DNA of 64,000 nt from Firmicutes bacterium CAG:582 (GTDB lineage Bacteria; Bacillota_I; Bacilli_A; RF39; UBA660), in contig FR884179.1 of assembly GCA_000435515.1 (NCBI GenBank), positions 2,780 to 66,779 of the forward strand, given 5' to 3'. The translations under genes and the position numbers were made by a program. This document shows, piece by piece, positions 28,055 through 47,718 of this stretch. The notes beneath the pieces were generated by a model. It saw only the letters and a list, made by a program, of their open reading frames with translations, was not told the origin of the DNA and made no database searches. The number at the start of each line of letters is the position of its first letter. Position 1 is the stretch's first letter.

Positions 28055-29323
28055 CTAATTAAAATAATTTAAAACTAAATCAATATCAATATTATCTTTA
28101 GTTCCAAGTTGTATATCTTCTATCTCAATATTCTTACCATCAAATTTATTTCCTAAAACAATTAATTTTGGAGTTCCCAATAAAGAAACATCATTAATTC
28201 TATTACCTAATGAAAGATTTTCCCTATCATCAATTATAGCAGATATACCATGACTACTTAATACATCATATAAATTTTCAGCCACATTCTTATTATTTTC
28301 TGAATATATTATATGAACTTTATATGGAGCTATTTCATATGGTATTACAAAACCCTTTATCTTTCCATTTTTATATACCAAATTATTTTCTATGATAGTT
28401 GCCAATATTCTTCCTAATCCAATTCCGTAACATCCCATATAAAATGGCTTACTATTTCCACATTCATCTTGGTAGAATAATTTCATACTTTCTGAATACT
28501 TTGTGCCAAGTTCAAAATTATTTCCTAGTTCGACTGAGTTAACTTCAATCAAATCTTCCAACTTCAAATTGTCAAGCTGATTAATAAAGGTTTCTTTATC
28601 TTCAAATGACAAAACTTCTTTATTTATACCAATCTTTTTTTCCTTATCATATAAGATGATATCTTCACCTAATGAAGTAGGAGCTTGAAATTCTTCTGAG
28701 ACTCTACCTCCCATTGTTCCACCATCACTTATAACTGATATAACATTTATTCCAAGTCTTTTAAAAATATTAATATAAACATCATGCATTTTATTAAAAG
28801 TTTTATGCATATCCTCTTCGTTTTTATCAAAAGAGTATGCATCCATCATTACAAAGGTCCTAGGTCTAAATAAATATCCTCTAGTTCTAATTTCTTTTCT
28901 AAACTTTTCTCCTATTTGATAATAGATAGTTGGAAGTTGTCTATATGATAATAATCTATTAGCCCCAAATATAGTTGCACATTCCTCTGCTGTAGGGGCA
29001 AGTCCATATTCTCCAAGGTTATTTTTAAAATTAAACATTATATCTTTTTCAACTGTATATTGATTCCATCTGTTTGATTTTTCCCAAATACTTTTTGGTT
29101 GTAATTTAGGCCATTCAACCTGAATACAATCAGCTTTATCTAATTCCTCAATTATGATATTTTCTACTATTTTCTCAAATTTGGTCCATATATTTCCGTA
29201 ACCATAAATTCCACTTTCAAATTGATATAATTCACCTATTTTTAATAAAATATCTTGTGCTGAATAATTTTTATCAACATCTTCAAGATTTATTTTTTTT
29301 ATATTTAATTTACTTAATCTCAT
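28055..29323 (-). CDS. proS: proline--tRNA ligase-like class II aaRS, short form without the INS editing domain
   Basis: Motif 2 region YRQLPTIYYQIGEKFRKEIRTRGYLFRPRTFVMMDAYSF. Motif 3 GCYGIGLGRILATIIE. C-terminal anticodon-binding domain. Preceded by a T-box whose candidate specifier is CCU. Confidence 0.75.
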   Translation of the reverse strand: MRLSKLNIKKINLEDVDKNYSAQDILLKIGELYQFESGIYGYGNIWTKFEKIVENIIIEELDKADCIQVEWPKLQPKSIWEKSNRWNQYTVEKDIMFNFKNNLGEYGLAPTAEECATIFGANRLLSYRQLPTIYYQIGEKFRKEIRTRGYLFRPRTFVMMDAYSFDKNEEDMHKTFNKMHDVYINIFKRLGINVISVISDGGTMGGRVSEEFQAPTSLGEDIILYDKEKKIGINKEVLSFEDKETFINQLDNLKLEDLIEVNSVELGNNFELGTKYSESMKLFYQDECGNSKPFYMGCYGIGLGRILATIIENNLVYKNGKIKGFVIPYEIAPYKVHIIYSENNKNVAENLYDVLSSHGISAIIDDRENLSLGNRINDVSLLGTPKLIVLGNKFDGKNIEIEDIQLGTKDNIDIDLVLNYFN

Positions 29324-29394
29324 AAAATTATCCTCTCTTTCTATAATTTATATTTCAATCAAACGGTCGTTTTATTCTCATTCCTATTTTCCTT

Positions 29395-29606
29395 TCAAAA
29401 AAAAAGAATGATACCTAAGGAGTGCAAAAAGCACGGTACCATCCTACTATTAACTTAATTTAAATAACGGTATTACCGAAAATGTTTACATTTCACTCAA
29501 AAGATAGGAACTAATTATCCATATAACTTGTTCACACTATACCAAGCTCACTTTTATATTTCTTAATTAGCATTTCTTTATCATCGATTTAATAATAATT
29601 TGATTT
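29395..29606 (-). promoter_or_regulatory. T-box riboswitch leader (candidate Pro/CCU specifier) with terminator
   Basis: Minus strand has the T-box sequence AGUAGGAUGGUACCGUGC (29431-29448). The terminator GGAUGGUACC...GGUAUCAUUC is followed by U9. Candidate specifier GUU-CCU-A lies at 29506-29508. Promoter TTGATA-17-TAAAAT at 29613-29641. Confidence 0.75.
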
Positions 29607-46032: not shown

Positions 46033-46076
46033 GAAAAAAACCACGAACAAGTAGTTTTTAATTATCTATAAAATTA
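46033..46076 (-). repeat. right copy of the direct repeat flanking fic; tyrS 3' end plus a degenerate terminator
   Basis: GAAAAAAACCACGAACAAGTAGTTTTTAATTATCTATAAAATTA. From CCAC to AATT there are 3 mismatches in 23 positions against the left copy. One mismatch breaks the hairpin. Confidence 0.5.
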
Positions 46077-47302
46077 ACTTTCAAAAATACTTTTTTACCT
46101 TTTTGTAATACTAAAGCATTATCTTTTAAGTCAGCATCTGTTACTATAAAATTTATATCATTTATTTTTTCTTGATTTAAACTAATACCATTTTGTTCAA
46201 TAAGTCTTCTTGCTTCAGATTTAGATGAAGCAATTTTTGCTTCAACTAGCAAATCAATTATATTTATATTTAGCATTTTTCTTGAAATATTAATTGATGG
46301 CATATTTTCAGATATTCCATTATTGTTAAATAGTTCTTCAGCTGTTTCTAGAGCTTGTTTTGCTTCAGCTTCTCCATGTACTAATTTTGTAACTTCAAAC
46401 GCAAGTAGTTTTTTCGCTTTTCTTATGTCATTTTTACATAATTCTTTAATATCCGATATTTCCATTCTTGTAAAAAATGATAGACTTCTTTCAACATCTT
46501 CATCAAAAGAATTTATCCAAGCTTGAAAAAATTCAAATGGTGTTGTTTTATCTCTTGAAACCCAAAGTGTTCCACTAGCTGTTTTACCCATTTTCTCTCC
46601 ATCAGCTTTTATAAGCAATGGACAAGTAAAACCATATAAAGGATCAATTTTTTTACCATTGTTATATCCTAGTTTTATAGAAAGATCAGCGCCTGCTAAA
46701 ATATTTCCCCATTGATCAGAGCCACCAATCTGTAATCGACATCCAAACTTTTCATTTAAATGCACAAAGTCGAATGCTTGCATTAACATATATCCCATTT
46801 CTAAAAATGTTAATCCACCGTTTTCTAATCTTTTTTTGTAACAATCAGCAGCAAGCATGTTGTTTACATTAAAATGAACTCCTATGTCTCTCATAAAATC
46901 AACATATGTCTTATCACAAATCCAGTCAGCATTATCTACTATAATAGCTGGATTCTCTCCATCTGTTTTAACAAATCTTTTTACTAATTCTTTAACTTCT
47001 GCTTTATTATGAGCAACCTCTTCTTTTGAAAGCATTTTTCTCATATCACTTTTACCTGTGGGATCTCCGATTAGAGCAGTTGCTCCTCCAATCAAGATTA
47101 TTCCATGATGTCCAAAGTCTTGAAGCCACCTAAATAATGTTAGAGCAAAAAAATGACCTATGTGCAAACTATCAGCAGTTGGATCAATACCTAAGTAAAA
47201 AGTCATAGATTCTCCATTAATTAATTCTATTATCTCATCTCTGTGAGTTAAATCTTTTACATATCCTCGTTCTTCAAGAATATCAAACAAATTCTTTTCC
47301 AT
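46058..47302 (-). CDS. tyrS: tyrosine--tRNA ligase
   Basis: HIGH (DSLHIGHF) and KMSKS-type (EKMGKT) motifs. C-terminal S4-like domain. Preceded by a T-box with a UAC specifier. Confidence 0.95.
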   Translation of the reverse strand: MEKNLFDILEERGYVKDLTHRDEIIELINGESMTFYLGIDPTADSLHIGHFFALTLFRWLQDFGHHGIILIGGATALIGDPTGKSDMRKMLSKEEVAHNKAEVKELVKRFVKTDGENPAIIVDNADWICDKTYVDFMRDIGVHFNVNNMLAADCYKKRLENGGLTFLEMGYMLMQAFDFVHLNEKFGCRLQIGGSDQWGNILAGADLSIKLGYNNGKKIDPLYGFTCPLLIKADGEKMGKTASGTLWVSRDKTTPFEFFQAWINSFDEDVERSLSFFTRMEISDIKELCKNDIRKAKKLLAFEVTKLVHGEAEAKQALETAEELFNNNGISENMPSINISRKMLNINIIDLLVEAKIASSKSEARRLIEQNGISLNQEKINDINFIVTDADLKDNALVLQKGKKVFLKVNFIDN

Positions 47303-47378
47303 ATTTTTTTATTTCTCCTTTTCTGTTTATATAGCTAATTAAAATTAATTCATTAAAGTAATAATAATAACTATCCAT
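47283..47378 (-). CDS. 31-codon upstream ORF with four consecutive Tyr codons, overlapping the tyrS SD and start
   Basis: Absent from the ORF track. AAGGAGGTG SD, 8-nt spacer, then ATG. Translation: MDSYYYYFNELILISYINRKGEIKKYGKEFV. Tyr codons at 47358-47369. Stop TGA at 47283-47285, inside tyrS and out of frame. Confidence 0.4.
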   Translation of the reverse strand: MDSYYYYFNELILISYINRKGEIKKYGKEFV

Positions 47379-47396
47379 ACAAACCACCTCCTTGAA

Positions 47397-47610
47397 ATAA
47401 AAAAGAGCAATAAGTCCAAAAAGGACGAATTGCTCGCGGTACCACCTTTATTCGTAATAATAGTTTATTACCTCTTCTTGATAACGGAAAAATCCGATTA
47501 AAATCATCATCTGTAATTCATTATTATAAAATTACTTGTTTACACCACCCACAAGCTCTCTATTTAACTCTTAAAATAACTACTTTAAATGAATCGCTTT
47601 TTAATTAACC
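47397..47610 (-). promoter_or_regulatory. T-box riboswitch leader (Tyr/UAC specifier) with terminator
   Basis: Minus strand: T-box AAAGGUGGUACCGCGAG (47433-47449). Terminator GAGCAAU...AUUGCUC plus a U-run. AGAGA box and distal loop CUUGU-GGGUGGUGUAA-ACAAG. GAAU-UAC-A at 47513-47515. Promoter TTGACT-17-TATATT at 47617-47645. Confidence 0.85.
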
Positions 47611-47718
47611 ATTAAAAATATACTATAATATATGAAAAAAGTCAAAACTTACCCTATTAATTTATCAAAACTTTTCGGCTAAATGACGATTTTTATTCGG
47701 TTAATCGCTGATTTTGGA

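Follow-up and report, generated by a model that had tools for sequence, protein, structure and literature searches.

T-box riboswitches are usually regarded as the whole control unit of the aminoacyl-tRNA synthetase genes of Firmicutes. Why, then, does the tyrosyl-tRNA synthetase (TyrRS) gene tyrS of Firmicutes bacterium CAG:582 carry a second, tyrosine-rich reading frame between its tyrosine-specific T-box and its own start codon? The gene lies in a 64,000-nucleotide stretch of contig FR884179.1, called the window here, to whose positions all coordinates refer; the T-box, the upstream open reading frame (uORF) and tyrS are all on the minus strand. The original prediction had placed behind the T-box terminator a strong Shine–Dalgarno sequence, an 8-nt spacer and an ATG opening a uORF of 31 codons with a run of four Tyr codons, which passes over the GGAG and the start codon of tyrS and overlaps the gene by 17 nt. 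All of these coordinates were correct.

The ribosome-binding site of the uORF (SD1), its open frame and its Tyr run are conserved, and covariation shows that the uORF is built into a long hairpin (helices P1 to P4) with an outer helix (P0) that reaches the tyrS ribosome-binding site. On balance we lean towards reading the uORF and the hairpin as a cis-acting translational attenuator behind the tyrS T-box, a second, ribosome-based sensor of charged tRNA-Tyr. In doing so we infer translation of the uORF, stalling of ribosomes on its Tyr run and a rise in tyrS translation through such stalling.

Conservation of the uORF and its Tyr codons

The tyrS loci, 80 from species-representative genomes and 30 more from the family, were gathered through the TyrRS protein, so the sample is free of bias towards the uORF. 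A homologous uORF with the consensus MDSDYYYY(Y/C)FDDCNLINYT... was found at every locus whose TyrRS is at least 72% identical to that of the window. It is present in 33 of 33 members of the TyrRS clade that includes the window, which is monophyletic in a maximum-likelihood tree (support 100/98), and is lacking from about 60 outgroup tyrS loci, though most of these have a T-box. The exceptions outside the clade, L054 and L056, have a TyrRS that starts with MNCFET and belong to a separate clade; in them the same SD-ATG-MDSDY(Y/D)Y opening reads directly into the TyrRS frame, and an internal Shine–Dalgarno sequence and ATG lie 54 nt downstream of it. Homologous uORFs also stand at 74 metagenome loci, with about 50 distinct variants. 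That relatives should keep the uORF and its Tyr run ahead of tyrS had been set beforehand as a test of the original prediction, and this held in all 33 clade genomes and in these variants. The metagenome contigs were covered by one exact-pattern scan, which gave 80 loci; its pattern demanded three Tyr codons, so these data are unusable for measuring Tyr conservation. In public assemblies the peptide is predicted by gene callers and forms a 40-member protein cluster, none of it named.

The distribution of the element is narrow. Among 401 genomes sampled from the order, a covariance model matched 10, each of them once; these represent nine genera of one family. The model did not find the element in five genomes of the window's own genus. 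The T-box–uORF–tyrS unit is thus patchily distributed and probably accessory. Relatives in public records are metagenome-assembled genomes of uncultured gut "Bacilli/Tenericutes", including Clostridium sp. CAG:1000.

The window's own leader resembles that of the basal L039, while the window TyrRS nests in the crown group; the TyrRS tree and the leader may differ in their histories. In the window hairpin, the distal arm (AAUGAAUUAAUUUUAAUUA, NELILI; 47325–47357) is that of L039 and is unlike that of the nearest TyrRS relatives (GAUGAUUGUAAUUUAAUUA, DDCNLI), a match that hints at recombination within the leader.

Could such a reading frame have arisen by chance in intergenic DNA rich in A/T, or be what is left of an older tyrS start that has decayed? 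The caveat that TAT is a common codon was fair for a single genome: TAY makes up about 5% of codons in long open reading frames, and runs of at least four TAY codons occur 27 times genome-wide versus 17–27 times in Markov-simulated genomes, which is the chance rate. The proS T-box in the same window is likewise followed by a mini-uORF that is not conserved and resembles a second copy of the gene start. The uORF run is the sole one of the 27 with a Shine–Dalgarno sequence and a start codon at most 12 codons upstream. A chance or remnant frame is hardly credible, as it is already contradicted by the conservation data, namely the presence of the uORF in all 33 clade genomes and in many metagenome variants, and a nucleotide diversity far below that of tyrS synonymous sites.

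The Tyr run comprises three to six codons in every clade member. It is invariant across 15 peptide variants of one protein cluster, in which the flanking residues vary. Its partner arm in the hairpin exists in at least four versions, those of the main clade (FDDCNLIN), of the window and L039 (NELILI), of L043 (ENSFLIN) and of L041, and the Tyr codons are constant throughout; the unstructured in-frame MNCFET variants keep Tyr codons too. Because the run remains constant while its partner arm changes, the Tyr codons appear to be selected for themselves and not just as one half of a helix.

The initiation signals and the reading frame are kept as well. SD1 (AAGGAGGUG), which is close to a perfect Shine–Dalgarno sequence, its spacing and the ATG are invariant among 32 aligned leaders, with an SD1 diversity of 0.055. 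The 5′ arm of P1, which holds the 3′ end of SD1, the spacer and the AUG, has a nucleotide diversity of 0.038 versus 0.205 in its pairing partner (0.344 at tyrS third codon positions), so that this arm is constrained by more than pairing. The 20–27 nt before the tyrS ATG vary in both sequence and length, and the offset of the uORF to the tyrS frame is +1, +2 or 0. In the uORF frame, just one of the 24 unique tails contains a stop, located past the tyrS Shine–Dalgarno sequence; for the two remaining frames the figures are 18 and 12. At 32 of 33 genome loci the uORF passes over both the tyrS Shine–Dalgarno sequence and the start, the exception being L016, where it stops between them, and 48 of 50 distinct metagenome leaders, an independent sample, read through both. 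The end of the uORF nearly always lies 1–43 nt inside tyrS, most commonly at +17, and where it is a separate reading frame it is 23–42 codons long. These initiation signals, the open frame in genomes and metagenomes and the Tyr run together indicate that the uORF itself is under selection.

Two other accounts of the overlap were rejected. A programmed frameshift from the uORF into tyrS is at odds with an offset that varies between +1, +2 and 0 among close relatives, and tyrS has its own conserved Shine–Dalgarno sequence and start, with an N-terminus that aligns from residue 1. The uORF as the true TyrRS N-terminus was rejected for the window clade; it applies just to the in-frame MNCFET variants.

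The hairpin P1–P4 and the outer helix P0

Both folding and alignment folding predict a long, imperfect hairpin whose 5′ arm contains the uORF start and the Tyr run. P1 pairs the 3′ end of SD1, the spacer and AUGG with uORF codons at about 17–22, and P2–P4 pair codons 2–9, including the Tyr run, with the codons that follow (FDDCN...). The outer helix P0 joins a U-rich segment after the terminator to the end of the tyrS Shine–Dalgarno sequence and its A-rich spacer. The fold of the window leader has a free energy of –20.6 kcal/mol (z = –4.0 versus shuffles), and no other known RNA family was found in the 160 nt, the best Rfam matches having E values of 7.7 or worse.

Covariation was assessed in two alignments, A1 with the 32 leaders found through the protein and A2 with 74 metagenome matches (56 distinct), which were fitted to the model and so lean towards the structure. 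In A1, 93.3% of cells are paired, versus 32–53% when partners are slid by 1–3 columns, and 5 pairs change on both sides. The corresponding values for A2 are 96.8% of cells and 11 pairs; the slid-partner controls of both alignments together range from 32 to 61%. One P1 pair in A2 occurs as G-C in 45 cases, A-U in 5 and G-U in 4, a compensatory change from G-C to A-U. Changes on both sides affect 3 of 7 P0 pairs in A1 and 5 of 7 in A2, and in A1 two adjacent P0 pairs swap UA and AU. The clade sequences share descent, and such sequence counts overstate the number of independent events; the shuffle controls on pair counts ignore kinship. Collectively, these results support a conserved and covarying hairpin P1–P4 together with P0.

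The predicted structure leaves the two ribosome-binding sites in different states. In the window fold the probability of being unpaired is 0.88 for SD1 and 0.12 for the tyrS Shine–Dalgarno region; for the latter, most main-clade members give 0.12–0.45 and the outliers L041 and L039 give 0.77–0.89. The tyrS AUG is free in the folds of most main-clade members.

Such a structure might also be an RNA-only element in which the reading frame has no purpose. It could signal processing or stability (e.g., as an RNase III site or an obstacle to a 5′ exonuclease) or be bound by a protein or a tRNA; SD1 would then do no more than stabilise the transcript through ribosome binding, as STAB-SD elements do in Bacillus. 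The strong structure support, the dominance of RNA-level constraint and the burial of the uORF AUG in P1 would all suit such an element. We nevertheless rate it as quite unlikely, since the frame is kept open over variable tails and in nearly all metagenome leaders, the ATG and its spacing from SD1 are invariant, and the in-frame variants retain SD1, ATG and Tyr codons in the absence of the hairpin.

The product might also be a functional Tyr-rich micropeptide that acts in trans and is co-expressed with tyrS. Its N-terminal 19 residues are conserved, and gene callers recognise it. The replacements Tyr to Cys, Asp to Gly and Cys to Arg, however, follow base-pairing and not residue chemistry, there is no codon periodicity, the C-terminal third shifts frame and sequence between relatives, and the coding region overlaps the tyrS start. 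A peptide with a function of its own is therefore very improbable.

A candidate ribosome-based sensor in series with the T-box

Classical transcription attenuation was rejected as the mode of action: no stem with a U-run lies between the uORF and tyrS, and what comes after the hairpin is GGAG with an A-rich spacer. As the sole terminator is upstream of the uORF and nothing terminator-like comes after it, any effect must be on translation or mRNA stability.

The proposed attenuator would work as follows. A transcript that has read through the terminator would present, in order, the U-rich 5′ arm of P0, the very strong SD1, the uORF with its start codon and codons 4–9 (the Tyr run) in the 5′ arm of the hairpin, and the tyrS Shine–Dalgarno sequence and spacer pairing back. 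In the folded state the tyrS ribosome-binding site would be partly masked, and a ribosome starting on the uORF would melt P1–P4. When charged tRNA-Tyr is scarce, this ribosome is expected to pause at the Tyr run, 9–27 nt past the start, where it would cover about nt –6 to +36 of the uORF, that is, the 5′ arms of P1–P4, so that neither the hairpin nor P0 could re-form. With P1 lost, P0 (7–9 A/U-rich pairs) is unlikely to hold, and the tyrS site would therefore be free; lying 35–50 nt further on, it would be accessible to ribosomes that initiate independently. With charged tRNA-Tyr in good supply, the ribosome on the uORF would cross the tyrS Shine–Dalgarno sequence and start and terminate 17–43 nt inside tyrS. 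Its transit would occlude the tyrS site, the structure would then snap back, and tyrS translation would be low. The T-box would thus read uncharged tRNA-Tyr at the level of transcription and the uORF would read charged tRNA-Tyr at the level of translation. Such an attenuator is the simplest model that uses SD1, the buried AUG and Tyr run, P0, the open frame and the Tyr T-box together.

Several observations weigh against it. First, nucleotide diversity at uORF codon positions 1, 2 and 3 is 0.086, 0.117 and 0.109, without codon periodicity, so the constraint on the uORF is mostly at the RNA level, unlike the evolution of an ordinary protein gene. Second, the most frequent change in the run, Tyr9 to Cys (TAC to TGC), is seen in 9–10 genomes and Tyr6 to Cys in one, both turning A-U into G-U; since these changes preserve base pairs, conservation of the Tyr run could be partly structural. 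Third, the uORF AUG is buried in P1, which could limit initiation on the uORF, and P0 is weak and A/U-rich, with the tyrS Shine–Dalgarno sequence paired only in part. Fourth, the in-frame MNCFET variants fit poorly: upstream initiation would give an N-extended TyrRS in them, and stalling would not obviously raise output. Finally, the direction of the effect could be either activation by stalling or loss of coupling.

The original prediction of a second, translational layer sensing tRNA-Tyr thus stands in part: conservation and a frame held open across the tyrS site agree with it, while the lack of codon periodicity and the recurrent, pair-preserving Tyr-to-Cys changes weaken it. Its simple scheme, in which fast translation covers the tyrS Shine–Dalgarno sequence, needs amending. 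Transit over the site is retained, in a manner like that of the rtpLP leader peptide (see below), and a combination of this transit with structural unmasking, as in ermC, is more likely, because the uORF start and Tyr run lie in a covarying hairpin whose outer helix would mask the tyrS site.

The cassette is not confined to one form of the enzyme. Most of the 80 metagenome loci precede a window-type TyrRS, and several carry the in-frame MNCFET type. At about 16 of them, the start codon marks the junction between a near-identical leader and a type-2 TyrRS core, which is only 31–36% identical to the window's enzyme and whose assignment is confirmed by PF00579; by eye, the C-terminal S4-like domain of these proteins is like that of the window type (...SKSEARRLIEQNGISLNQEKI...LQKGKKVFLKV). 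These chimeric-looking enzymes (L146, L148, L163, L173, L181, L183, L189, L193, L215 and others) suggest that the catalytic core was swapped by recombination inside the locus. Since the cassette lies ahead of three TyrRS forms, the leader tracks tyrosyl-tRNA synthetase function and not one protein lineage. A bolder reading, which we put forward only tentatively, is that the uORF and hairpin together make up a ribosome-actuated switch for charged tRNA-Tyr that is portable and acts in series with the T-box, and that recombination at the start codon kept this leader ahead of window-type, MNCFET and type-2 TyrRS.

This association also matters for constitutive translational coupling, in which ribosomes loading at SD1 would unfold P0 and P1 and re-initiate at tyrS, with the Tyr codons a by-product of the A/U-rich hairpin and no sensing involved. 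The uORF end lies at a distance inside tyrS suited to re-initiation, P0 masks the tyrS Shine–Dalgarno sequence and spacer, and both the missing codon periodicity and the pair-preserving Tyr-to-Cys changes accord with it. Coupling of this kind is nonetheless unlikely. The cassette is tied to tyrosyl-tRNA synthetase function over the three enzyme forms, the Tyr run is kept across four partner-arm versions and in hairpin-less variants, and, with TAY at about 5% of codons, four to six of them in a row after a start codon, precisely in a Tyr T-box leader, would be an unlikely by-product.

Two further metagenome loci depart from the usual arrangement. In L207 (JAEEGL014418693.1), a Tyr T-box and the uORF and hairpin are followed by a 311-aa protein without a Pfam match in place of tyrS; the uORF stops 28 nt before this gene, and the reading frame after it has an N-terminus that looks RNase J-like. 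In L142 (OCTX011326052.1, 2.6 kb), the uORF (MDSDYYYYYFDD...) runs in frame into the middle of a queuosine-salvage protein (PF10343 positions 138–238). L142 is a single short contig in which a deletion or an assembly chimera is possible. Queuosine is carried by tRNA-Tyr in many bacteria. No tryptophanase/TPL-family gene was seen behind the cassette at the 80 metagenome loci.

Compared to known systems, the candidate attenuator behind the tyrS T-box combines features of several. To our knowledge, the sole described T-box backed by a cognate-codon leader peptide is that of the Bacillus subtilis anti-TRAP operon. This at (rtpA/yczA) operon, with a Trp T-box followed by the rtpLP leader peptide, was reportedly described by Chen and Yanofsky in 2003/2004, whose work PMC4027176 cites. 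In both cases a T-box attenuator is followed, in the same mRNA, by a short reading frame with consecutive codons for the sensed amino acid, whose position relative to the downstream Shine–Dalgarno sequence would let the progress of the ribosome set translation, so that tRNA charging is sensed twice. The tyrS leader differs in that it concerns Tyr rather than Trp and that the regulated gene is the aminoacyl-tRNA synthetase itself. Furthermore, rtpLP has about 10 codons, whereas the tyrS uORF has 23–42, passes through the downstream Shine–Dalgarno sequence and start, usually stops inside the gene, and is part of a long covarying hairpin flanked by an outer helix that involves the downstream ribosome-binding site. 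Sequence kinship between the two is not expected. According to PMC4027176, transcription and translation of anti-TRAP both respond to uncharged tRNA-Trp, translation through the leader peptide coding region. By this analogy, the design proposed for tyrS is not without precedent. In full-text searches of the literature, no account of a uORF with Tyr codons downstream of a tyrS T-box came up.

The likeness to ermC and cat attenuation lies in a leader reading frame with its own exposed Shine–Dalgarno sequence, a presumed stall site in the 5′ arm of a hairpin, and a downstream ribosome-binding site in a helix whose stability would depend on that hairpin. The presumed signal in tyrS is a shortage of charged tRNA and not a ribosome-bound antibiotic; two nested helices take the place of four alternative segments, and the leader reading frame continues over the ribosome-binding site. 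In Escherichia coli pheST (pheM) and in trpL, pheL and hisL, a run of cognate codons in a leader peptide likewise controls a gene tied to that amino acid, and the target of pheM is again an aminoacyl-tRNA synthetase. These systems act through transcription termination with a terminator downstream of the leader reading frame, unlike the tyrS leader, whose terminator is upstream of the uORF.

If the attenuator reading is right, a two-layer design was invented, or kept, for a synthetase gene itself, and the element would join ribosome stalling with the unmasking of RNA structure and behave as a portable module. At about 110 nt, it would be a compact system for studying how cells integrate signals from uncharged and charged tRNA. 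Its hosts are abundant uncultured gut bacteria with small genomes.

Locus layout and genome setting

The features of the locus are listed in Table 1.

Table 1. Positions of the elements of the tyrS locus in the window, in order of transcription
Feature	Position	Strand	Basis and remarks
Promoter-like site TTGACT-17-TATATT	47617–47645	–	Consensus scan, 10/12 matches, pattern match only; adjoins the T-box leader upstream
T-box leader, tyrosine-specific (Rfam RF00230)	47418–47606	–	cmscan, 100.2 bits versus gathering score 93, full model 1–219
Specifier codon UAC (Tyr)	47513–47515	–	Sequence and cmscan alignment
T-box terminator stem-loop (GAGCAAUUCGUCC / GGACUUAUUGCUC) and U6	47399–47435	–	Sequence; position agrees with the 3′ end of the Rfam model
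P0 5′ arm (UUUUAUUUC)	47394–47402	–	Minimum free energy and centroid fold; overlaps the end of the terminator U-tract
uORF Shine–Dalgarno sequence SD1 (AAGGAGGTG / AAGGAGGUG)	47385–47393	–	8 nt upstream of the ATG; in the internal loop that separates P0 from P1, mostly unpaired
uORF, 31 codons and TGA (MDSYYYYFNELILISYINRKGEIKKYGKEFV, then stop)	47283–47378	–	ATG 47378–47376, TGA 47285–47283
Tyr run TAT TAT TAT TAC, uORF codons 4–7	47358–47369	–	Sequence; within the 5′ arm of the hairpin
Hairpin P1-P2(-P4)	47325–47384	–	P1: 47384–47375 (GUUUGUAUGG, including the uORF AUG) with 47334–47325 (CUAUAUAAAC)
tyrS Shine–Dalgarno GGAG (47318–47315) and P0 3′ arm GAAAUAAAA (47315–47307)	47307–47318	–	Fold and covariation
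tyrS, 414 aa, class I TyrRS with S4-like C-terminal domain	46058–47302	–	ATG 47302–47300; Pfam PF00579 at 2.5e-73, PF22421, PF01479

The T-box matches the amino acid of the gene that it precedes. The specifier stands in the context GAA-U-UAC-A (47518–47512) in the Stem I specifier loop, which is kept in 33 of 33 relatives, and GAAUUACA in the leader is kept in all of them; the genome carries one tRNA-Tyr(GUA) gene. The T-box sequence/antiterminator AAAGGUGGUACCGCGAGC... is present, followed by the competing terminator stem with the arms GAGCAAU.../...AUUGCUC and its U6. A simple terminator scan passed over this terminator because its stem has an internal mismatch. The tyrS start is 76 nt beyond the uORF ATG, and the TyrRS N-terminus MEKNLFDILEERGY aligns to those of relatives from residue 1. 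In the window, the uORF crosses the tyrS Shine–Dalgarno sequence and start and is in the +1 frame, its stop beginning 17 nt inside the gene.

In the main clade (L012 and relatives), the 11-mer ACUAUUAUUAC occurs twice, in the 3′ arm of T-box Stem III (window 47453–47463) and in the uORF Tyr run (47358–47369), so the 5′ arm of Stem III (GUAAUAA) could pair with either copy. The repeat could be a coincidence, the trace of a duplication or a means of alternative pairing.

The genome has 1.29 Mb, 27% G+C and 11 T-box matches. In nine of the 11 T-box leaders, the Shine–Dalgarno sequence and start of the regulated gene follow the terminator U-run by about 10–25 nt; in the tyrS leader, SD1 occupies this spot, where other T-box genes load ribosomes. 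A genome-wide habit of placing a uORF behind a T-box was rejected, as only two of the 11 leaders hold anything between terminator and gene.

The other case is proS (28055–29323), whose T-box (about 29415–29593) is followed, after its terminator, by a mini-uORF with its own Shine–Dalgarno sequence, MRIKRPFD and then a stop, in the interval between T-box and gene (29323–29415, minus strand). The opening codons of the mini-uORF (ATGAGAATAAAA) look like the proS start in relatives (ATGAGATTAAAA), as though the beginning of the gene had been copied. This arrangement is not conserved: in the closest T-box-bearing relative (69% ProRS identity), a Shine–Dalgarno sequence and proS come straight after the terminator.

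A second tyrS paralogue, 45% identical, lies outside the window on contig C20 (2032–3231, minus strand), downstream of another T-box match (C20:3911–4032) and a HAD-like open reading frame. This second type is the only tyrS type in most genomes of the family.

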